Shown one piece after another: positions 8,319 through 32,000 of a DNA stretch of 32,000 nt. Origin of the DNA: Chryseobacterium ginsenosidimutans (lineage in GTDB: Bacteria; Bacteroidota; Bacteroidia; Flavobacteriales; Weeksellaceae); NCBI RefSeq assembly GCF_024807225.1, contig NZ_JANUCO010000001.1, positions 1,471,276-1,503,275 of the forward strand, read 5' to 3'. The notes below the pieces were generated by a model. It was not told the DNA's origin and made no database searches. It saw only the letters and a program-made list of their open reading frames with translations. A program made the position numbers and the translations under genes. The stretch's first letter is position 1. The number at the start of each line of letters is the position of its first letter.

Positions 8319-8990
8319 TTACATGCTGGAATTGTAATATCCGTTCTCTACGCAGAAGCGGATAAGGTGGAGTTTTGTCTTCAGTCCGAGCTTTTCTGTA
8401 AGTCGGTTGATATAGGTATCAATTGTTCTTGTACTGAGGTTCAGTTTTTCTCCGATTTCCTTGTTGCTGAAGCCTTCATAGCAGAATTTCATCAGTTGGA
8501 TCTCGGTGGAAGAAAGCTCTTCCTGGCTCTTTTTTTGTCTGTCCATATAGTCCTGAACTGCCAAAGGCTGCTGTTCCCATTCTTTGGTATAAGCTGCATA
8601 ATCGAAACTGTCTGAAGTTATTTTTCCCTTAATAACATCTTTGATGATATTGCTTTTTTTCTCGCAATAAAATATATTCGGGATTTTCGAAAGAATTTCT
8701 GCCATATCTTCCTGATAAGTTCCGGAATAAGTGATTATGGGGGTTTCCGTATTGCTTTTTCGGATGTATTTGATGGCTTCAAGACCACTTAATACCGGCA
8801 TGAAAAGTTCTACGATGAACACGTCTTCCTGTCTTCTGTAATTTCTGCTAATAAGCTCGTGGCCGTTGTTGCAGTCATTAAGAAGCATGTAAAACGGATT
8901 TTCGGTAAGCGTCTTAATCATTATTTTTTTAAAATAAAAATCACTGTCTGCTATAGAGAATCGCACAGTATTAGTTAGTATTTTGCTCAC
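8319..8990 (-). CDS. Orphan NarL/LuxR-family response-regulator-like protein with Asp->Glu at the phosphoacceptor position; divergent from the T6SS membrane-complex operon
   Basis: 223 aa with a GTG start. C-terminal LuxR HTH (STEIQLMKFCYEGFSNKEIGEKLNLSTRTIDTYINRLTEKLGL). The receiver segment QEDVFIVELFMPVLSGLEAIKYIR aligns residue-for-residue with NarL [24 protein letters not shown], except D->E. Confidence 0.8.
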   Translation of the reverse strand: MSKILTNTVRFSIADSDFYFKKIMIKTLTENPFYMLLNDCNNGHELISRNYRRQEDVFIVELFMPVLSGLEAIKYIRKSNTETPIITYSGTYQEDMAEILSKIPNIFYCEKKSNIIKDVIKGKITSDSFDYAAYTKEWEQQPLAVQDYMDRQKKSQEELSSTEIQLMKFCYEGFSNKEIGEKLNLSTRTIDTYINRLTEKLGLKTKLHLIRFCVENGYYNSSM

Positions 8991-9168
8991 TTTAATATCG
9001 ATTTGGTGTAGAATAATTAGAATTCCGGGACTAAATTATGAAAATATAGCGAAAGTGAAAATTAATCTTAAATTAATTAAAAGTATGGTGTTATTTCCTT
9101 AAAAATCGTAAATTTTGTGCATAAATTATTTTTTTATAATTTCACAGACCCAAACAAATCACAAACAT

Positions 9169-9705
9169 ATGTCTTCGAACAGGGAGAAAAAACTAAACAA
9201 AACGGACGTCAGAGTAGGCATTTGGAAATTTATTCTATCGTTTATCGCATTATCAGGTGTTGCTTTCATCTGTGTGTTCTTCTTTTTCAAAAGTTATGAT
9301 ATACAGAGAGAAGGAATTAAAAAACAAGCAGATGACTACCGCGAACTGCTTACCAGAAGCGACTTACTGAGAACTCATGTAGACAGCATCATGTACCGGA
9401 TGGATCAGCTTGATATCAGCAAGGTGGACAATGATATTTTTCTTAGGAATTATATCATGGATAACGTGCGGGATGCCAAAAATATCATGGGAAAAGATAG
9501 TGCAGATAATTTTAAACATTATTCGATCTTAATGAAACAGATTGAGCCGATGCTGGCTTTAAAAAATCAAATTATTAATATTTCTTACAAAGAACAGACT
9601 GCTCTGAGGAATTTGAGCGAGTGCAGAGGAAGAGTAGGAGTGGCAAACGACGAATTGAGGGTAGATCCTACAAGAAAATTCTCAGGAAGCAGACGTAGAA
9701 GATAA
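9169..9705 (+). CDS. Single-pass inner-membrane protein, candidate T6SS-iii membrane-complex subunit (TssN/O/P/Q class, not resolved)
   Basis: The track ORF starts at TTG 9115; the first ATG (9169, MSSNREKK...) is preferred. One TM helix (WKFILSFIALSGVAFICVFFFF) followed by a coiled-coil-like region. First gene of an operon ending in a TssR-like gene. Confidence 0.6.
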   Translation: MSSNREKKLNKTDVRVGIWKFILSFIALSGVAFICVFFFFKSYDIQREGIKKQADDYRELLTRSDLLRTHVDSIMYRMDQLDISKVDNDIFLRNYIMDNVRDAKNIMGKDSADNFKHYSILMKQIEPMLALKNQIINISYKEQTALRNLSECRGRVGVANDELRVDPTRKFSGSRRRR

Positions 9706-9716
9706 AAACGAAAATT

Positions 9717-10244
9717 ATGCAGGAACAAATCACACTATCAAAAAAAGAAAGGCATTATCAGTTTTTATATTTGATTTTAATGCTTTTGGCGGCACTTCTA
9801 TTTTTAGGAATTATATTTTTAAAAGGATTTGAATCACCGTTTTCCGATGAAGACATGATTTCTGTTCAGAATCTTGAAGAAAAAGCAAAATTCGATCAGA
9901 AACAGAGATATTCTTACAAAACGTTAGACAGTACATTTTCAATGATTAATAAGCTTACGGACGAAACACCGGAGCCTTTTGTGGAAAACAATATCATGTA
10001 CGGAATCAACGATGTCGCTAATTATTTCCAAAACGGAGACAATATTTCCGACATCAGAAAAGATGCTTATCCGCAGATCGCGAAATTTTACAAAATGTAC
10101 TTCAACGACAAGAAAATTATTTCAAGCAAAACAGAAAATATTAAAAGTTTTACAAAACAGTTTGAAGAATGCTCAATCGGTTTTAAAGAAAAGAAAAGCC
10201 AGCTTTTCCAGCGTGAAACAGCGTTGAAATCTAGAACCCAGTAA
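9717..10244 (+). CDS. Single-pass membrane protein, candidate T6SS-iii membrane-complex subunit
   Basis: 175 aa. One TM helix (FLYLILMLLAALLFLGIIFL). Starts 11 nt after the previous stop. Confidence 0.6.
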   Translation: MQEQITLSKKERHYQFLYLILMLLAALLFLGIIFLKGFESPFSDEDMISVQNLEEKAKFDQKQRYSYKTLDSTFSMINKLTDETPEPFVENNIMYGINDVANYFQNGDNISDIRKDAYPQIAKFYKMYFNDKKIISSKTENIKSFTKQFEECSIGFKEKKSQLFQRETALKSRTQ

Positions 10245-10295: not shown

Positions 10296-10736
10296 ATGAA
10301 TTACTTTCAAAAAAACAAAAAGAACATTATTATTGGTGTTATTGCAACTTTGCTCATCGCAGCGCTGGTTGCATTATGGTTGCAGAAGAAGGTGATACAC
10401 TCCGCAGACGATATTGTAGGAGTTGTAAACCCATCTTCCATTGCCGTAGGAGATACCCTTTTGTTTGAAGACATGACCCAATTTGCAAAAACCAGAAGAT
10501 GGAACTTTGGAGACGGACAATCATCGGATAAAAACAGAGGTATCCACTTTTACAATAGACCGGGATATTATCAGGTGACATTGATTATCGATAACAAATA
10601 TTCCAAATCTTTTCCGGTAATGGTCTCCGCCAGAAGCGTTCCAAAGCCGCAAGATTCAACAAAATCTAAAACTTTAATCGATGCACAGACACAGGCAATG
10701 CAGTTTGAAAACGTGCAGTTTCCGTGCGATTTCTGA
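10296..10736 (+). CDS. N-terminal part of a frameshifted membrane-anchored two-PKD-domain protein (candidate T6SS-iii membrane-complex subunit)
   Basis: TM helix (IIIGVIATLLIAALVALWL) followed by a PKD-like domain (GDTLLFED...WNFGDGQSS....HFYNRPGYYQVTLII). Ends in the first strand of a second PKD domain. Confidence 0.65.
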   Translation: MNYFQKNKKNIIIGVIATLLIAALVALWLQKKVIHSADDIVGVVNPSSIAVGDTLLFEDMTQFAKTRRWNFGDGQSSDKNRGIHFYNRPGYYQVTLIIDNKYSKSFPVMVSARSVPKPQDSTKSKTLIDAQTQAMQFENVQFPCDF

Positions 10737-11205
10737 AGGAAAACAGTTCACATGGAAATTTGGGGAAACCGGAAATATCGATTCCAAAGACAAAATGGCG
10801 ATTTATTCTTACAAAAAACCGGGAGATTACATCGTAACACTTTATACAGACGAAAGCGAAGAGCCGATTTTGCATCAGATCAAGATTCTTCCTGCTTACG
10901 ACGCTTTGGAAGAAGAAGTGAGTGTAGAAGATTCTTATGCTAAAATTGATAACGATTTTAAATATCACTTGCAGCAAATTGCCAACGGAAACAGCTTCAA
11001 TATGCATTACAATTATCTGTTGAAAACATATCTGTGCAACAACGAAAATACTGTGGTAAAGGTAAACGACAGCAAAGTAAATAACTTTTACATGTATTGT
11101 GCAGGTCTTCAGTTTGATAAAAATATGGTTATCCAGACCGTAAAAGTGAACTTCGATGATACGCAAAACTGTGTAACCAAAGTTGATATAAACCAAAGTA
11201 AATAA
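10681..11205 (+). CDS. C-terminal part of the same frameshifted PKD protein (+1 frame); real sequence probably resumes near 10723
   Basis: The +1 frame reads RAISEGKQFTWKFGETGNIDSKDKMAIYSYKKPGDYIVTLY, the rest of a PKD domain whose first strand (ENVQF) is in the previous frame. Confidence 0.6.
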   Translation: MHRHRQCSLKTCSFRAISEGKQFTWKFGETGNIDSKDKMAIYSYKKPGDYIVTLYTDESEEPILHQIKILPAYDALEEEVSVEDSYAKIDNDFKYHLQQIANGNSFNMHYNYLLKTYLCNNENTVVKVNDSKVNNFYMYCAGLQFDKNMVIQTVKVNFDDTQNCVTKVDINQSK

Positions 11206-11256: not shown

Positions 11257-13656
11257 ATGAAAAATAAATTTCCTCTAGCAGCATATTACGTAGGAGTTTC
11301 GGTTTTATTGGTAAGTTGCCAAGTAAAACTGCCGTCGAAAAAAACTCCGGAGCCATCGCAGTACGGTCAGGTTGATACCTCACCTGTCGTGAATGGTTTT
11401 CCTAAAAAATCAGCTCCATGGATCGCTATTTCAGACAGATCCAGAAATACGGCTTATCTAGATAAAAATGACGAAAAATCTTACAAAGAAGTTAAGTTTT
11501 TAGAGCCTTTAATGGTCATAAAAAACAGAGACGGAATGGTAAAAGTAGCAGAATATATTCCTGATGCTTTAATGAAAAAAGTTTCGTCGAAACAGATCAA
11601 AACATACGGCTGGATCCCAGAATCTGAACTTCTTCTCTGGAGCAATTCTCTGAAAAGCGAAAAAACAGGTTTTCCCGTGAGAGTAGCAGTTTTACCGAGT
11701 AACAGCGAAGTCATCAGAAGCTCAGAAAGATATTATAAAAACGATTCGATCATGGTGTTTAATTCACCGAGTCTTATCGAGCAGGCCAACGTGAAAATCC
11801 CGAACGGACAAGTCGTTTACGTTTACAAACAAGCCGAAAACAACAAAAGATTCTTGGTCGGAAAGAAACCGACCATCGATATGGACAGCATCAGTACGAG
11901 TTTGTACGGTTGGGTAAGTTCCAATGTAGTTTCAGCTTGGGGAGAGCGTTCTGCGGTTAAAATGAAAAATACAACAGGCGTTACAGAAACAGCTTTAGGG
12001 CTTCACGAAGGTTCTCCGGGGAAAAACGAAACGGGAGACAGAACCTCAATTCTTTTGACAGATGTGAATAAAAGAACGCCTCTTGAAAATATTTACCCTG
12101 TAACTTTACCGTTAAATGAAGCTCCGACTCCGGATTCAAAAACAAAATATTTTACGAATGTTTTAGATTACAGTAAAAATTATGTTTTCAATGTATTGGG
12201 AGAACAGATTTATTTTGACCGTTACAGAGAGATTACGGAGAGAAATAAGAGAATTAATATCGTTTTCGCTTTAGACATCAGTGCTCCGAATGCGCCTTAT
12301 GCTCCGATTGTGAAGTCTTTATTACAGGATTTGCAATTGAGATTCGAAAAACCGTCTTATTTTAATCAGGTGAAATATGGAGTTGTTTTGTATAAAAATA
12401 ATTCTTGTGGAGACAATGTAGCAGTTTCAAATTTAAGTACAGATTACAGCAAGATCACCAAATTCATTGATGATAAAACTAATGAGATGAACTGTCCGAG
12501 CAACAGCGGTTATCAACCTGTAAATGAAGGTTTAATGGCAGCCGGAAATCTTTTGTCAAATGTTCCTGATGAAACCAATATCGTTGTAACGGTAGGAACT
12601 TCGGCGAACCAAAGCGGAAACATGTATGGTGTGATTAATTCTCTGACGCAAGCTCAGGCAAGAGTAATTATGTTTCAGACAAGTGCAAGAACATCAGATA
12701 CGTATAACGATTTTGTCTTAATGGCTGAAAATGTAGTGACGAATACTGCAAAAAATATCGCTGAATTAAAGAAACAGAAAATCATTAACCAAAATGATGT
12801 TTTAACTAAAAATAATTTCAGTCTGGTTGAAGGCGACGAAGGTTTCTTCTCATTAAATTATCCGAAACAAAGTATGTCTCAAGGTTTTGTGATCTTCCCT
12901 AAAAAAGGCGACATCGCAACTCCCGGTTATCTTAAAAAATCTGTAGACAGCTTAATTTCTCAGGTTACGTTGGATAATACCACGTTGGATAAATCTTTAA
13001 ATGATTATTTCCATTCATCAGTAGGAGCGGGAAGAACGGATGTTGATGTGAAGTATAAATATCTTTATCCGGGGCTTACAAACCCAGTTCCTGCTGGAAT
13101 TGCAGCACAGTTGATCAATTATGGAAGTCCGTTTTTAGCGAAAGGTTATATCCCGAAAGAACTGAAAGATTACAAACCGGGATTAGAAAAAGGGATCTTA
13201 ATTTCTGAAGCTGAATACGATAATTTAAAAATGTTCTATACCGAAGTTTACAAAAATACGGGAGCAGAAAGATCAGATTTCAAACAGTCAAGCGCCATCA
13301 ATGAATACGTAAGATTGTTGAAAAAATATAATCCGACCATAAAATTCCTTGACAAAAGCGAGCTTTACAAACAGCCAATGTCTTATGCAGTGGGAATCAG
13401 CACTGGTTTTGATAATTCTGAAGAAGAATTAATGACAAAATATATGCTGAAAGGCTGGAAAAAATCGAAAATTGTGACGAATGAAACCGTAAGGTCATAC
13501 TTCCGTCATTACAAAGATTTGGTAGAAAGAATGTTGACACACAGAAACGATCCTGCCGTGAAAATTCAGCAGAACGGACAGACTTTCTATTGGTTGAATG
13601 AGTATTTCATGCCGACAATGGCACCAACAGAAGAACCTGAATATACTAAGCATTAA
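11257..13656 (+). CDS. tssR: Large TssR-like T6SS-iii lipoprotein with vWA-like domain
   Basis: 799 aa. Lipobox (SVLLVSC). vWA/MIDAS-like segment (INIVFALDISAPNAPY...). Size, lipoprotein nature and position at the end of the membrane-protein operon match TssR. The family call is from memory, not a search. Confidence 0.6.
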   Translation: MKNKFPLAAYYVGVSVLLVSCQVKLPSKKTPEPSQYGQVDTSPVVNGFPKKSAPWIAISDRSRNTAYLDKNDEKSYKEVKFLEPLMVIKNRDGMVKVAEYIPDALMKKVSSKQIKTYGWIPESELLLWSNSLKSEKTGFPVRVAVLPSNSEVIRSSERYYKNDSIMVFNSPSLIEQANVKIPNGQVVYVYKQAENNKRFLVGKKPTIDMDSISTSLYGWVSSNVVSAWGERSAVKMKNTTGVTETALGLHEGSPGKNETGDRTSILLTDVNKRTPLENIYPVTLPLNEAPTPDSKTKYFTNVLDYSKNYVFNVLGEQIYFDRYREITERNKRINIVFALDISAPNAPYAPIVKSLLQDLQLRFEKPSYFNQVKYGVVLYKNNSCGDNVAVSNLSTDYSKITKFIDDKTNEMNCPSNSGYQPVNEGLMAAGNLLSNVPDETNIVVTVGTSANQSGNMYGVINSLTQAQARVIMFQTSARTSDTYNDFVLMAENVVTNTAKNIAELKKQKIINQNDVLTKNNFSLVEGDEGFFSLNYPKQSMSQGFVIFPKKGDIATPGYLKKSVDSLISQVTLDNTTLDKSLNDYFHSSVGAGRTDVDVKYKYLYPGLTNPVPAGIAAQLINYGSPFLAKGYIPKELKDYKPGLEKGILISEAEYDNLKMFYTEVYKNTGAERSDFKQSSAINEYVRLLKKYNPTIKFLDKSELYKQPMSYAVGISTGFDNSEEELMTKYMLKGWKKSKIVTNETVRSYFRHYKDLVERMLTHRNDPAVKIQQNGQTFYWLNEYFMPTMAPTEEPEYTKH

Positions 13657-21753: not shown

Positions 21754-21798
21754 ACTCCTTTAAACAAAAGAAATATTACATAAATGTTAAATCTATTG

Positions 21799-21835
21799 TC
21801 GTAGAATTACTACATCAAATCGTAGAAATACTACA
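21799..21835 (+). promoter_or_regulatory. Tandem operator-like sites upstream of hcp-1: two GTAG-N5-CTAC units, 21 bp centre to centre
   Basis: tcGTAGaattaCTACa (21799-21814) and tcGTAGaaataCTACa (21820-21835). The same block recurs upstream of hcp-2 at the same distance from the -7 box. Confidence 0.6.
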
Positions 21836-21883
21836 AAAATTAAGATTGAGGTTGAAAAGCTTTCAGAAAGAAATTCCCTGTCC

Positions 21884-21891
21884 TATCTTTG
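21884..21891 (+). promoter_or_regulatory. Candidate -7 promoter box (TATCTTTG) of hcp-1
   Basis: Exact TAnnTTTG. A TTTC (-33-like) lies 19 nt upstream. 52 nt separate the box from the ATG at 21944. Confidence 0.5.
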
Positions 21892-21943
21892 TTAAACAAT
21901 CACCGAATCACAAAATATTATTAACGATTAAAATTTACCAATC

Positions 21944-22348
21944 ATGGCAGCAAATTCAAGAGGAATCTTAAAATTCAACGGAGGCGAAGGTCAAAAATTA
22001 TTAAAGCTAAACTACAGTGTATCAAGATCTACGGATGTATCTGGTAGAGTGGCTTCAGACCCATCAAACGCATTGATCAAACTTACAGTAGAAGCTACTG
22101 AAAAATCAGACATCTTAGAAAGTTTACTAAACGGAAAGTATAAACCTACAACAGGAGAAATTACTTTCAACAAATCTCACGAAGAAGGTACTTTAATTAC
22201 TCTGAAGTGGACAAACGGATACGTTATTCAGCATGAAGTAGACTTCGACGCAGTAGACGAAAACAGTATGTTGATCAGCTTTATCGTAAGCGCCGAAACA
22301 ATTGACTACGGAAATTCTAATTTCGACGGTTTTTGGCCAACAGCTTAG
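21944..22348 (+). CDS. hcp: T6SS-iii tube protein Hcp (TssD), copy 1
   Basis: 134 aa. Size and sequence style match Bacteroidota Hcp. Sits directly upstream of clpV. A near-identical paralog starts at 31846. Confidence 0.8.
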   Translation: MAANSRGILKFNGGEGQKLLKLNYSVSRSTDVSGRVASDPSNALIKLTVEATEKSDILESLLNGKYKPTTGEITFNKSHEEGTLITLKWTNGYVIQHEVDFDAVDENSMLISFIVSAETIDYGNSNFDGFWPTA

Positions 22349-22633: not shown

Positions 22634-25129
22634 ATGGGAGTACTAGTAACCAATGAGACTGTAAAACAGCTTTTTCATATTGCACAATCCATCGCGAGGG
22701 AAAATTATAACGGAACTTACGGCGGACCGCATATTTTGCAGGCTTTAATGCATAAAGATATTGGTCTTAATGAGTTTTTGAAAAGTATTGATAAAGATCC
22801 GGGATATTTCTACGAATGGGCAGATGTACGAATCGAAGATTATCCCAAAACAACACATCTTCCCAACGATATTGGTGAGGATGAATTTGTTGATAATATC
22901 GTTGAAGAAGCAGATGATATCCGTTTAAAATTAGGATTGGATGAGATTACTCCGGTTTGTATTTTAACGGCTATTGTAAAACCTCAGGTTGCTTTTACAC
23001 TGCAACAGCTTAAATCTCTGCCGCTTAGAGAGCATGAGATTTTCAATTTATACAGAAAAGATACACCCTACGAAACTTCGGATAACGGAGAATTTTCTTC
23101 AATTTTTTCAAACGGATCAGAGTATTCGGATAATTCTTTTCCGTCTATTAAAAGTTATTGTGTCGACAGAACGGCTCAGGCAAGAAAGGGCGAGTTGGAA
23201 AACATTATCGGAAGAGATAAAGAACTCAGAATGTTGGTTGAAATTCTTTGCCGAAGAACCAAACCGAATGTCATCATCATCGGAGAACCGGGAGTTGGAA
23301 AAACGGCTTTAGTAGAAGGTTTCGCTACCGAAATTATTAAAGGAAACGTGCCTGAAATGTTGAAAAACGGAACGCTTTTAGAGCTTGACACAGGAGCCTT
23401 ATTAGCCGGAACTTCTTATAAAGGCGAAATTGAAGATCGTCTTAAAAAAGTAATTAATGAATGTAAAAAGATCGAAAAAGCCATTCTTTTTATTGATGAA
23501 ATTCACACGCTTTTAGATCCGAAAGGAAGCATCGGAAATGTTGCTAATTTGTTGAAGCCTGAATTGGCAAGAGGTGAAATCACCGTAATCGGAGCAACAA
23601 CTCAGGAAGAATATAGAAAAATTATAGAGCCGGAACAGGCTTTCAATCGTCGTTTTGAAGTTTTAACAGTGAATGAGCCGGATGAAAAAACCTGCGTTAA
23701 AATGATCGACGTTTTATTAGACGGCTACAAAAAACACCACGGAATTGAAGTGGAGAAAAACGCTATTCCGGAATGTGTTCGTTTGGCAAAAAGGTATGCA
23801 AAAGGTAAAAAATTGCCTGATGCAGCAATCGACTTGCTAGACAGAACAATGGCGGCGATCAAAATGCTTGATGAACTTTCAGAAAAAGAACTGGAAAGCT
23901 GGAAAGTAACCTATGAAGCGCTTCAAAACGAAGAATATTTCGACGAAAAAGATAAAGCCGACGAATTGGTCTGGAATTATAATTTGTTGAGAGATAAGAT
24001 CAGCCCGATTTTGTGGGGATCTTTGAGTGAACAGCCGCAAATTGACAATTCAATGCCGGTTGATCAGATTCAAAAAATTATTGAAGACAGCTACGCAGAA
24101 CTATTACAGCATGCATCAAAAAAGAGAGAAAAGGTTGACCGTTTGGAATTAGCGGCTGTAATGGCGGCAAAAACAAACATTCCGATCGGTAAAATCCAAG
24201 CTCAGGAAAAAGAAAAGCTTCTGAATATGGAAGGGCTTTTACTAAACAGAGTTGTCGGTCAGGATCACGCATTAAAAATTCTTTCTGATGCCATCGTTGA
24301 AAATCGAAGCGGATTGAATAAACCGGGACAGCCAATCGGTTCGTTCTTCCTTTTAGGACCGACAGGAACAGGAAAAACGGAACTGGCAAAATCTATGGCA
24401 GAGTTGCTTTTTAATGATGAAAAAGCGATGGTTCGTTTCGATATGTCAGAATTTAAAGAAGAACATTCAGCGGCGCTTTTATACGGTGCTCCTCCGGGAT
24501 ATGTCGGTTATGAGGAAGGAGGAATGTTGGTGAATAAAATCCGTCAGCAGCCTTATACGGTTGTTTTATTTGATGAAATTGAAAAAGCGCATCATTCTGT
24601 TTTTGATGTCTTTTTACAGATCATGGATGAAGGGAAAGTGCATGATAAGCTTGGAAAAGAAGGTGATTTCAGCAATGCAATTATTTTATTTACGTCAAAT
24701 ATCGGAAGCGAGGAAATTGTAAAGCAGTTTGAAGAAGGTAAAATCCCGGAATCAAAATCATTAATGCAGATTATGTCTAATTCAGGGCGTTTTAGACCGG
24801 AATTTTTGGCAAGAATTACAGAAATTATTCCTTTTGCACCAATTACAGAATCTATTGCGGAGAGAATTTTTAATATTCAGTTAAAATCACTTCATACTTC
24901 ATTGATGAGATTAGGAATGAGCTTAAAAATCAGTGATGAAGCAGTGAAAAACTTAGCTTTAGGAGGATTTAGCAGTAAATATGGAGCAAGACAAATTTCC
25001 GGAGTGATAAGATCTCAACTGGCAAGACCGATCTCCAAAATGATTGTAAGAGAAGAAGTAAAATCCGGACAGACCCTTCATGTAGACTGGAATTCGGAAG
25101 AGGAAAAACTTAACTGGAAAGTAGATTAA
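22634..25129 (+). CDS. tssH: T6SS AAA+ ATPase ClpV (TssH)
   Basis: 831 aa. Clp N-domain, two AAA+ modules with Walker A motifs GEPGVGKT and GPTGTGKT, Walker B motifs ILFIDEIH and VVLFDEIEKA. Confidence 0.9.
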   Translation: MGVLVTNETVKQLFHIAQSIARENYNGTYGGPHILQALMHKDIGLNEFLKSIDKDPGYFYEWADVRIEDYPKTTHLPNDIGEDEFVDNIVEEADDIRLKLGLDEITPVCILTAIVKPQVAFTLQQLKSLPLREHEIFNLYRKDTPYETSDNGEFSSIFSNGSEYSDNSFPSIKSYCVDRTAQARKGELENIIGRDKELRMLVEILCRRTKPNVIIIGEPGVGKTALVEGFATEIIKGNVPEMLKNGTLLELDTGALLAGTSYKGEIEDRLKKVINECKKIEKAILFIDEIHTLLDPKGSIGNVANLLKPELARGEITVIGATTQEEYRKIIEPEQAFNRRFEVLTVNEPDEKTCVKMIDVLLDGYKKHHGIEVEKNAIPECVRLAKRYAKGKKLPDAAIDLLDRTMAAIKMLDELSEKELESWKVTYEALQNEEYFDEKDKADELVWNYNLLRDKISPILWGSLSEQPQIDNSMPVDQIQKIIEDSYAELLQHASKKREKVDRLELAAVMAAKTNIPIGKIQAQEKEKLLNMEGLLLNRVVGQDHALKILSDAIVENRSGLNKPGQPIGSFFLLGPTGTGKTELAKSMAELLFNDEKAMVRFDMSEFKEEHSAALLYGAPPGYVGYEEGGMLVNKIRQQPYTVVLFDEIEKAHHSVFDVFLQIMDEGKVHDKLGKEGDFSNAIILFTSNIGSEEIVKQFEEGKIPESKSLMQIMSNSGRFRPEFLARITEIIPFAPITESIAERIFNIQLKSLHTSLMRLGMSLKISDEAVKNLALGGFSSKYGARQISGVIRSQLARPISKMIVREEVKSGQTLHVDWNSEEEKLNWKVD

Positions 25130-26114: not shown

Positions 26115-28052
26115 ATGAAAACAGAATCACAAAATATACTAAAAAGCCCTTCATTCCGTCCATCTCAGAATGCCGACGGAATCTCGGAAAATCAACATGC
26201 CGGAATCAACAGATTGGTAAAACTTTCTTTGGTTATTGAAGGAAAAGTAATCAAGTATTACAAACATTTTAAACTGACTCAAAGCTCAAGGCGACACCAT
26301 GAATTCAGTCTTGCGTTGGCTCATGATGCTTTGGGAGACCGACAAACTCACACGTTGGAGGAAGCGAATAAATTCCTTGGAAAACGTCTGACTGTCGTAA
26401 TTTCTTATAAAGATATTGAAAGCAGTCCCGAAAGAACTTTTGTGGGAGTCATCACCGGAGTAGGATTCAGTCAGGAAAAAATGAGTCTCGGAAATATTGT
26501 TTTAACAGGATACAGTCCTACTATTTTGCTGGATGGAGCTCCTCATATTCAAAGTTTTGGAGGCGGATCGCCTGTCAATATGGGAATTATTGCCAATGAA
26601 GTCATTAAACAAGGTCTTGATTCCAGTCGTTTCGACGTGAGAGTTGATACGAATGATTATTCTCAGATTATTTACAGCAGCCAATACGACGAAACACATT
26701 ACAATTATCTGGCGAGAATGGCTGAAGCGTATGGCGAACAGTTTTATTATGATGGTGAAGTGCTGCATTTCGGAAAGCTTCCGCAACAGAATAAACCTAT
26801 TAAATTAACCTACGGAAGCAGCGCAAACGATATTAAAGTTGAATTAAAAGCTGTCCATACAAAACCACAATTTTACGGCTACAACAGCAATAAAAATGAA
26901 AAACTAACATCGGCGGAAACTCCTGTTCAGCATGTGGGAGACTTAGCAAAAACGGCGTATGCCCACAATGATAAAATTTATAAAACTCCGGCTTTACAAG
27001 TCGCACCGATAAAAGCATCTACGCATCTTGATGTAGAATATTCTCAAAAAAGCACATCTGGAAGTGAAGCGGTGAATGTATTTTTATTATCAGGAAATAC
27101 AACAGTTCCGTTTTTGCATCCGGGTTGTGTGGTAGATGTTCAGATGCGAAAAGTAGATACCAACGAATCTTCTTATTTTACAAGAATCATGGTGACGGAA
27201 GTTACTCATGAGATCGATACGATTGGTCATTACACCGGAAGTTTTGAAGGGATTGCTTCAGACACCGGATTTTTACCGAAACCGGAATTTAAAACTCCCA
27301 AAGCGGAACCACAGATTGCAACGGTAATTTCCAATGCAGATCCGGAAGGTCAGGGAAGAATTCAGGTAAGATTTGACTGGCAGACCAATGATACGACACA
27401 TTTTATCAGAATGATGAGTCCTGATGCGGGAGGAACAGATCAGGTGAACCAAAACAGAGGATACGTCGCGATTCCAGAAATCGGAGATCAGGTGATGGTG
27501 AATTTCGTTCACAGTCATCCCGACAGACCTTTCGTGATGGGCGGAATGTTCCACGGAGGAATCGGTCTTGGCGGCGGAATGGATAACAGAGTAAAATCTA
27601 TCCAAACAAGAAGCGGTCACAGAGTGATTTTTACGGAAGATGAAAGTATCATTATCACCGATAAATCAGGAAACGAAATACATTTAGATACAACAGGAAG
27701 CAACATTACTATTACCGCTCCGGAAACTATGACCTTGAATTGTAGGAATATGAATATCAATGTTGGAGAAAATATGACAACCAACGTTGGTGTAAATAAA
27801 TCTGATACTATTCTGGCAAATCATACTGAAAGTGTGGGTGCAATGAAAATGACTTCTGTTCTAGGTGATACAAGTATGTTTATTACAGGAAAACTGACTG
27901 AAATGATTGAAGGAGATGTGCATAGTGAAACGAAAAAAGAGAGAGTAGAGCTATCACATGATGATATTCAGTTTTCATCAAATAAAAGTATTAACAAAAA
28001 TGCTCAATTGGAGATAAAGAATAATAGCGGAGAAATTAGTAAAAACCATTAA
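26115..28052 (+). CDS. vgrG: T6SS spike protein VgrG (TssI)
   Basis: 645 aa. gp27-like N-terminal half, gp5 OB-fold motif (EGQGRIQVRFDWQ...YVAIPEIGDQVMVNFVHSHPDRPFVMG), C-terminal beta-helix repeats. Confidence 0.9.
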   Translation: MKTESQNILKSPSFRPSQNADGISENQHAGINRLVKLSLVIEGKVIKYYKHFKLTQSSRRHHEFSLALAHDALGDRQTHTLEEANKFLGKRLTVVISYKDIESSPERTFVGVITGVGFSQEKMSLGNIVLTGYSPTILLDGAPHIQSFGGGSPVNMGIIANEVIKQGLDSSRFDVRVDTNDYSQIIYSSQYDETHYNYLARMAEAYGEQFYYDGEVLHFGKLPQQNKPIKLTYGSSANDIKVELKAVHTKPQFYGYNSNKNEKLTSAETPVQHVGDLAKTAYAHNDKIYKTPALQVAPIKASTHLDVEYSQKSTSGSEAVNVFLLSGNTTVPFLHPGCVVDVQMRKVDTNESSYFTRIMVTEVTHEIDTIGHYTGSFEGIASDTGFLPKPEFKTPKAEPQIATVISNADPEGQGRIQVRFDWQTNDTTHFIRMMSPDAGGTDQVNQNRGYVAIPEIGDQVMVNFVHSHPDRPFVMGGMFHGGIGLGGGMDNRVKSIQTRSGHRVIFTEDESIIITDKSGNEIHLDTTGSNITITAPETMTLNCRNMNINVGENMTTNVGVNKSDTILANHTESVGAMKMTSVLGDTSMFITGKLTEMIEGDVHSETKKERVELSHDDIQFSSNKSINKNAQLEIKNNSGEISKNH

Positions 28053-31530: not shown

Positions 31531-31690
31531 GCCTGAAAATCAATTTAAGATATGTTAACAATTATTAAAAATATCTTAAATAAATCTTAATATTTCCCTA
31601 TTAAGTGTGAAAATAAAGTAGAATTATTTCAAAAATTATCAATTTAATTATTTGATTTTTAAATAAATATAAAATTAATTATTTCTATTG

Positions 31691-31727
31691 TCGTAGAATT
31701 ACTACACCGAATCGTAGAACTACTACA
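31691..31727 (+). promoter_or_regulatory. Tandem GTAG-N5-CTAC sites upstream of hcp-2 (second copy of the 21799-21835 block)
   Basis: tcGTAGaattaCTACa (31691-31706) and tcGTAGaactaCTACa (31712-31727), again 21 bp apart. Confidence 0.6.
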
Positions 31728-31775
31728 AAAAATAAAATTGCCATTTAAAAACTTTCAGATTAAAAAAAGGTGATC

Positions 31776-31783
31776 TATCTTTG
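31776..31783 (+). promoter_or_regulatory. Candidate -7 promoter box (TATCTTTG) of hcp-2
   Basis: Exact TAnnTTTG. TTTC lies 19 nt upstream. 48 nt separate it from the operator block, as for hcp-1. Confidence 0.5.
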
Positions 31784-31845
31784 ACTCAACAAATCACACA
31801 CACCACATCAAATCACAAAATATTAACGATTAAAATTTACAAATC

Positions 31846-32000
31846 ATGGCAGCAAATTCAAGAGGAATCTTAAAATTCAACGGAGGAGAAGGTCAAAAAT
31901 TATTAAAACTGAACTACAGTGTATCAAGATCTACAGACGTTTCTGGTAGAGTAGCTTCAGATCCTTCCAATGCATTGATCAAGGTTACCGTAGAAGCTAC
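31846..32000 (+). CDS. hcp: T6SS-iii tube protein Hcp (TssD), copy 2, 5' part only (runs off the window)
   Basis: The first 51 codons differ from hcp-1 at 14 nucleotides: 13 synonymous third positions and 1 replacement (L->V). Confidence 0.8.
   Translation, partial: MAANSRGILKFNGGEGQKLLKLNYSVSRSTDVSGRVASDPSNALIKVTVEA

Follow-up and report, generated by a model that had tools for sequence, protein, structure and literature searches.

A pair of 16-nt units lies upstream of each of the two hcp genes in a 32,000-nt stretch of Chryseobacterium ginsenosidimutans DNA (hereafter the window). It covers a Bacteroidota type VI secretion (T6SS-iii) locus of Chryseobacterium that encodes an Hcp matching a C. 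ginsenosidimutans protein at 100% identity. Judged from sequence, position, and conservation, the block that holds each pair (21792-21835 at hcp1 and 31684-31727 at hcp2) is likely to act as an upstream activator site for the sigma-A-type promoter of the hcp gene that follows. Elements of this kind, tandem upstream activator sites, are ordinary; the sequence, the strict restriction to hcp, and the genus-wide rigidity are new. Full-text literature searches returned no description of the motif, nor of a T6SS-iii transcriptional regulator in Flavobacteriia, in agreement with an initial annotation of the window, which knew of no named T6SS-iii element of this kind. No transcriptional regulator of T6SS-iii figures in a 2026 review of T6SS accessory factors, so the regulation of this subtype appears largely unknown.

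Geometry of the element and its core promoter

The 16-nt word TCGTAGAAnTACTACA occurs twice per hcp promoter in direct orientation, 21 bp from start to start. Each candidate operator unit is 16 nt long and takes the form TCGTAGAAnTAC[T/G]ACA, with two units per site. The features of the two promoters are listed below, with positions relative to the predicted transcription starts and with scores from a position weight matrix (PWM).

21799..21814, + strand: hcp1 distal candidate operator unit, TCGTAGAATTACTACA, centre at about -89, PWM score 29.2
21820..21835, + strand: hcp1 proximal candidate operator unit, TCGTAGAAATACTACA, centre at about -68
21861..21864, + strand: hcp1 -33-like element TTTC, 19 nt 5' of the -7 box
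21884..21891, + strand: hcp1 -7 box TATCTTTG, predicted start A at 21896
21896..21943, + strand: predicted 48-nt 5' leader of hcp1 with the conserved TATTAACGATTAAAATTTAC, from alignment and profile
21944..22348, + strand: hcp1 (TssD, the T6SS-iii tube protein), Pfam PF17642, E = 2.3e-31
31691..31706, + strand: hcp2 distal candidate operator unit, TCGTAGAATTACTACA, PWM score 28.8
31712..31727, + strand: hcp2 proximal candidate operator unit, TCGTAGAACTACTACA, PWM score 29.5
31753..31783, + strand: hcp2 core promoter, with TTTC at 31753-31756, a 19-nt spacer, and TATCTTTG at 31776-31783; predicted start A at 31788
31846..32000, + strand: hcp2 (TssD, by Pfam), cut by the window end

Much of what the initial annotation read from the two copies was borne out. 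The blocks differ by 3 substitutions, their unit centres lie 21 bp apart at both genes, and in both copies the block ends 48 nt 5' of TATCTTTG, with TTTC 19 nt 5' of that box. The flanks have diverged, upstream to random identity (1-5 matches per 10 nt) and downstream to the point that only the TTTC and TATCTTTG regions are similar. Both hcp genes carry the element as annotated, the start of the second being corrected to 31846. The repeat had been described as a 13-bp unit; the repetition stands, but the length does not, the real unit being the directly oriented 16-mer. Inside each unit is the near-palindrome GTAGwA-N-TwCTAC. Five of 7 tested pairs are complementary in the 16-mer consensus (13-nt core GTAGAATTACTAC), and a frequent unit variant, GTAGTATTACTAC, contains a perfect 6-1-6 palindrome.

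Across the whole window, GTAG-N5-CTAC is confined to 21801-21813, 21822-21834, 31693-31705, and 31714-31726, four occurrences against 0.07 expected, a number reached in 0 of 100 shuffles. When the PWM was built from the sites of other species, the four window units scored 25-30 bits. The same scan of the 32-kb window found no further site of at least 8 bits, only palindromic echoes of the known sites.

The flavobacterial sigma-A -7 box TAnnTTTG (TAHHTTTG) spans -12 to -5 (PMC9723704, PMC6847099). The Bacteroidota promoter consensus is TTTG/TANNTTTG, in which TTTG is the -33 element, a motif that is weak in F. johnsoniae (PMC6847099). The hcp1 and hcp2 core promoters have identical geometry, and the best reading of their sequence is a Bacteroidota sigma-A type -33/-7 promoter with a strong -7 box, TAtcTTTG. 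Counting from this box, transcription would start at A21896 (hcp1) and A31788 (hcp2), which places the unit centres at -68 and -89, 5' of the Bacteroidota -33/-7 promoter and in an activator-type position, in line with the upstream activator site that had been annotated. The -7 box lies 35-95 nt 5' of the ATG in 105 of 106 promoters, and the A at the predicted +1 is 87% conserved. The -33-like TTT is 87-94% conserved and has the canonical 19-nt spacer. Because the consensus G follows it in only 3 of the 106 promoters, the -33 element looks weak and in need of help. A scan for sigma-70-type promoters and terminators was uninformative for Bacteroidota.

The predicted 5' leader (21896-21943 at hcp1, 31788-31845 at hcp2) contains a stretch, TAtTAACgaTTAAAATTTAc..AtcATG, that is >90% conserved in about 100 promoters and includes an A at -3 and an A-run at about -13 to -10. 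Both features are reported to boost translation in Bacteroidota, which lack Shine-Dalgarno sequences (PMC6847099). The leader is conserved beyond these positions as well, possibly because it contains an additional post-transcriptional signal. Rfam gave no match for the block or the leader.

Conservation and restriction to hcp promoters

With the Hcp protein rather than the motif as query, 72 hcp loci were collected from GTDB Chryseobacterium species genomes. Alignment of the 230 nt upstream of hcp revealed four islands that are kept, namely the block, the TTT, TAtcTTTG, and the 5' leader, while the rest diverges; the phylogenetic footprinting proposed in the initial annotation thus recovers the block as a conserved island. 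Mean pairwise identity is 0.92 in the -7 box and 0.84 in the block, compared with 0.39 in the 36 nt upstream of the block, 0.40 in the 20 nt between the -33 and -7 elements, and 0.52 at the four-fold degenerate sites of hcp. Since the block exceeds both its flanks and the four-fold sites, these alignments mark it as an island of purifying selection and not as a by-product of recent duplication.

The same figures bear on a reading in which the block has no regulatory role, being either functionless sequence left by duplication or gene conversion among hcp paralogs or a transcribed hairpin that pairs distal GUAG/CUAC with proximal GUAG/CUAC. It draws on the multi-copy nature of hcp, on the 83% nucleotide identity of the coding sequence between copies and species, and on the folding of the 49-nt block at -8.3 kcal/mol (z = -3.0). 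Duplication does not account for an island of identity that stands above its surroundings on both sides and above the four-fold sites. As for a hairpin, the block lies 5' of a conserved promoter and is probably not transcribed from it. In addition, the T/G position of the unit, which is never C and almost never A, is T in 55 distal units and G in 49, so that pairing would be broken in about half of the promoters while the partner stays invariant. This uncompensated polymorphism speaks against a transcribed hairpin, for which Rfam likewise offers no match. Altogether, a block devoid of regulatory function, or acting as RNA, is very improbable.

An information profile of 106 non-redundant promoters delimits a 41-nt footprint, [G/A]TCGTAGAATTAC[T/G]ACAtcAAATCGTAGAA[T/C]TAC[T]ACAAAA. 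Because this profile was anchored on the motif itself, it was repeated with the -7 box as the sole anchor; the proximal unit is then centred at -68 in 103 of 105 non-redundant Chryseobacterium promoters and the distal unit at -89 in 91 of the 105. Unit spacing is 21 bp in 209/209 pairs. In 195 of 224 unique promoters, the proximal unit keeps one and the same distance from the -7 box, and 10 more deviate by exactly one additional 21-bp step. Promoters carry one to three units in register. A position far upstream of the core, units mutually in phase, a rigid distance to the promoter, and a fixed orientation together point to a stereospecific upstream activator site.

The proposed tie between the block and hcp promoters proved well founded, its position and sequence being conserved in about 100 independent Chryseobacterium hcp promoters; on this sampling, the element appears before essentially every hcp gene across the genus. 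Of 120 unit arrays in the 1.28 Mb of Chryseobacterium DNA retrieved with Hcp as query, 103 directly precede an hcp open reading frame (ORF). The remaining arrays include hcp genes at which a spurious ORF was picked first, decayed hcp remnants, reverse-strand echoes of the near-palindrome, and one single unit before a 715-aa protein (L069). The 108 hcp promoters contain 142 copies of the GTAG-N5-CTAC core; the rest of this DNA contains 10, where composition predicts 14. In these data, the motif is essentially confined to hcp promoters. A restriction-modification target was rejected, as the motif is fixed in position and, away from hcp promoters, no more frequent than chance predicts.

A metagenome scan with the motif pair alone returned at least 130 matches. 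Among those listed, 124 precede an hcp gene whose product is 86-100% identical to the Hcp of the window; the others are 4 matches cut by contig ends and 2 unrelated GC-rich tandem repeats. The Hcp type of the window forms a single 50%-identity cluster, with next relatives at most 43% identical. Neither the motif nor a comparable repeat pair is present at hcp of the marine Flavobacteriaceae Flavivirga, Aquimarina, and Tenacibaculum (about 40% identical), which indicates that the element is confined to Chryseobacterium and very close relatives.

Two side observations concern unusual sites. The decayed hcp remnants, in which a start codon is soon followed by early stops, lie 5' of clpV (L020:5618, L039:5626, L064:5649, and L072:5626) and keep one intact proximal unit, the leader, and the -7 box at the canonical distance; this promoter may have been retained to drive clpV. 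A looser unit scan, outside the 120 arrays, also found an inverted single core (GTAGAATTACTAC on the minus strand) between hcp and the next vgrG-like gene at L042:10532 and L052:10588, matching a site in L049. These are three related species whose hcp promoter carries three units.

Proposed mode of action and candidate binding proteins

Each hcp gene heads an operon that goes on into clpV or into vgrG and effector genes. Being exactly two helical turns apart, at about -89 and -68, the two units share one face of the DNA, at a rigid distance from a strong -7 box and from a -33 element that is weak by the TTTG consensus (TTT and then a base that is not G). In the mechanism that we propose, an activator that recognizes the sequence would occupy both units cooperatively and, working from upstream like a class I activator, recruit RNA polymerase or stabilise it, with high, coordinated expression of all hcp paralogs as the expected outcome. 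A candidate NarL/FixJ-type regulator encoded in the window may bind as two dimers, in the manner of BvgA.

We infer activation rather than repression. In other phyla, T6SS genes are frequently kept under tight repression, tandem in-phase operators serve repressors too, and conservation, which shows selection, is silent on the sign of regulation. The units might accordingly be operators of a repressor or silencer that loops to the core promoter or nucleates a repressive complex and keeps hcp off until a signal arrives. However, the sites end at least 25 nt 5' of the -33 element and overlap neither it nor the -7 box or +1, conservation reveals no partner operator further downstream, the spacing to the promoter is rigid, and the avoidance of the consensus G at -33 (3/106) is what an activator-dependent promoter would be expected to show. 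Repression through these sites is thus improbable.

According to Pfam and NCBIfam searches of all window ORFs, the DNA-binding proteins of the locus are two LuxR-type regulators and HU, and no others. The two regulators, of the LuxR/GerE type and both with a degenerate receiver domain, are as follows.

8319..8990, - strand: NarL/FixJ-type regulator, candidate binder, divergent from tssO
1882-2532, - strand: second regulator

The 8319-8990 protein is the leading and only locus-linked candidate for binding the hcp units, a role that its sequence and genomic position make possible, with a probability that we place a little below even. It has a GerE helix-turn-helix (HTH) domain (Pfam, E = 9e-15) and a receiver domain (33.6 bits), and its structural relatives are NarL-family regulators, the best including EvgA, DesR, VraR, and NarL. 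Alignment with PDB 4zmr sets IVELFMP against ILDVEMP and so places Glu at the position of the phospho-acceptor Asp. This Glu is invariant in 112 orthologs, whose HTH hardly varies either, and orthologs across the genus are 83-95% identical. Fold and domain order fit NarL/FixJ membership, and the phospho-acceptor Asp of that family is missing. Because Glu replaces it, the protein may act without phosphorylation, and from its sequence it is probably an atypical NarL/FixJ member independent of phosphorylation; no cognate histidine kinase is encoded in the window. The gene is flanked by the T6SS island on one side and by the HU-RNase G genes on the other, and it is always divergent from tssO in 12 fetched loci and 2 further contigs, the most divergent orthologs included.

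By analogy, the closest documented geometry is that of the BvgA site arrays at Bordetella virulence promoters. At PfhaB, BvgA, a member of the NarL family, recognizes imperfect 14-bp palindromes that are 22 bp apart and centred at -88.5, -66.5, and -44.5 (PMC9708447). The hcp sites resemble these arrays in repeats two helical turns apart on one DNA face, in having two or more sites per promoter, and in their far-upstream centres (about -89 and -68, compared with -88.5 and -66.5 at PfhaB); the 13-bp near-palindrome of the hcp unit is a partial counterpart of the 14-bp imperfect palindromes of BvgA. A GerE-type HTH is found both in BvgA and in the 8319-8990 candidate. The differences are a period of 21 rather than 22 bp, two near-consensus units where BvgA has one strong primary site and weaker ones, a Bacteroidota sigma-A type promoter (-33/-7), and Glu in a putative regulator in place of a phosphorylated Asp. 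The half-sites of the box bound by EvgA, another NarL-family regulator, may be TTCYTACA and TGTARGAA and would then be similar to the halves of the hcp unit with their order exchanged; no weight is placed on this likeness.

Several observations weigh against binding by dimers of this regulator, or limit what the comparison can say. No third site is recognisable at about -47, abutting the -33 element: the segment from +17 to +38 after the proximal unit is A/T-rich, has an identity of 0.55, is unlike the unit, and has no PWM match. The initial annotation had proposed 4-bp inverted arms bound by a dimer of dimers. The near-palindrome is indeed present, yet a dimer of dimers is not established, given that the symmetry of the unit is imperfect, with CGAC replacing CTAC in the distal unit of 49 of 106 promoters (about 46%). 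Moreover, the symmetric partner of the T/G position stays A, and the invariant flanks TC...A repeat directly, yielding an asymmetric 16-mer in direct repeat. Monomer-per-unit binders of the AraC/XylS or LytTR type therefore fit these features as well as a dimer does. No hcp-type site occurs in the candidate regulator's own intergenic region or before tssO. Finally, motif and regulator co-occur at the level of the genus only, which does not discriminate between candidates, and the genome searches covered T6SS neighbourhoods only.

These features leave room for an upstream activator site recognized by a direct-repeat binder of the AraC/XylS or LytTR type encoded outside the window, which we regard as unlikely. 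In the AraC/XylS variant, two HTH motifs per monomer would read TCGTAG and TACnACA about 10 bp apart, with one monomer per 16-nt unit and dimers spanning the 21-bp period. AraC/XylS half-sites (araI1-I2 and the XylS sites at Pm) are asymmetric, 15-17 bp long, and arranged as direct repeats with a 21-bp period in fixed orientation to the promoter. The hcp units share that asymmetry, the direct repetition with invariant flanks, the period (exactly 21 bp in every pair), and the fixed orientation, and they come as one to three in register. LytTR systems such as AgrA, ComE, and PlnC offer a comparable arrangement of two dimer-bound direct repeats upstream of a promoter; their 9-bp repeats and 12-13 bp spacers give a period of 21-22 bp, close to the 21 bp at hcp, and the proximal AgrA repeat is centred near -60. 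Against this stands the gene content, as neither the window nor the surroundings of hcp2-type loci contain a gene of the AraC or LytTR type. The proximal AraC/XylS half-site normally overlaps or touches the -35 region, whereas the proximal hcp unit ends 25 nt 5' of the -33 element. The LytTR consensus [TA][AC][CA]GTTN[AG][TG] has no match on either strand of either block, and the hcp units are 16 nt long with an internal palindrome. That near-palindrome, perfect in GTAGTATTACTAC, would be superfluous for a monomeric binder.

A functional parallel to binding by the 8319-8990 protein exists in VasH of Vibrio cholerae, a main-cluster T6SS regulator that acts specifically on hcp-headed satellite operons. 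If the 8319-8990 protein is the binder, it would likewise be a T6SS-cluster regulator specific to hcp-headed operons. VasH is a sigma-54 enhancer-binding ATPase. In contrast, the hcp core has a conserved sigma-A -7 box, no GG-N10-GC occurs 5' of hcp1, and the only one at hcp2 (31518) falls outside the conserved promoter, about 260 nt 5' of the -7 box. No enhancer-binding protein is encoded in the window, where the only Sigma54_activat Pfam match is a secondary one inside the ClpV AAA domain. The conserved core promoter excludes a sigma-54/VasH-type arrangement.

A bolder and more tentative proposal, which we consider rather doubtful, is that the Asp-to-Glu NarL-type regulator at the edge of the T6SS island is a dedicated, genus-wide hcp switch that is independent of phosphorylation, binds the two units as a tetramer, and acts on hcp-headed operons only. 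If true, the switch would also cover the orphan hcp-vgrG-effector modules scattered around the genome and would set the supply of tube and effectors apart from the membrane-complex operon. Such a switch would parallel VasH in function while working through sigma-A, and no transcriptional circuit would have been defined earlier for any T6SS-iii outside Bacteroidales.

The second LuxR-type protein (1882-2532), also named as a possible binder in the initial annotation, is a poor candidate and was rejected, for it lacks synteny in relatives: its matches in the fetched loci amount to one partial copy (at the edge of L062) and one 28% identical protein (L058), and it is absent from the corresponding position of L198 and L199. 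Its receiver domain falls below the Pfam cut-off (24.1 versus 30.2 bits), and in the translation, from which alone this was read, the presumed acceptor position has no acidic residue (LMISSNM).

Locus content and effector modules

The T6SS genes of the window were identified by Pfam, with Pfam and NCBIfam run on all ORFs and small ORFs listed too. Besides hcp, they include the following.

9115-10244: two TssO genes
11257-13656: TssR
22634-25129: ClpV
26115-28052: VgrG
within the window: a PAAR-like protein

In relatives, vgrG and the genes for a TPR protein and an Rhs effector come after the second hcp copy. One such module, hcp-vgrG-TPR-Rhs effector-immunity, occupies L022:10647-19938; beyond hcp2, the relative has vgrG, the TPR protein, the Rhs effector, and immunity-like genes, and nothing else. 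Because the second hcp copy heads a module of this type, the element probably controls effector modules besides the tube protein. The membrane-complex operon lacks the site, which suggests that the hcp-vgrG-effector operons are controlled apart from it.

The region between the regulator and tssO (8991-9114 and its orthologs) has conserved blocks of its own: CGATTTGG, a T-run followed by TATATTTTCAC, and CCAAACAAATC before the tssO start. Since these blocks are unrelated to the hcp motif, the membrane-complex operon appears to be under different control. A near-match to the motif that had been annotated in this region, at 9008-9020, is absent from 12/12 orthologous regulator-tssO intergenic regions and is attributable to chance.

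The 41-bp genus-conserved element can be used as bait for its regulator, as a reporter for tracing signals that turn the weapon on in plant- and soil-associated Chryseobacterium, and as a marker of hcp-headed effector modules in genomes and metagenomes.

A further observation concerns the gene for a PKD-domain T6SS protein that follows the two tssO genes. In relatives, it is a single ORF of about 302 aa (e.g., L064:2051-2959). In the window (10296-11205), a frameshift near 10720 splits it into the overlapping ORFs 10296-10736 and 10681-11205, which reflects either a sequencing error or a pseudogene; in the latter case, the membrane complex of this strain could be inactive.

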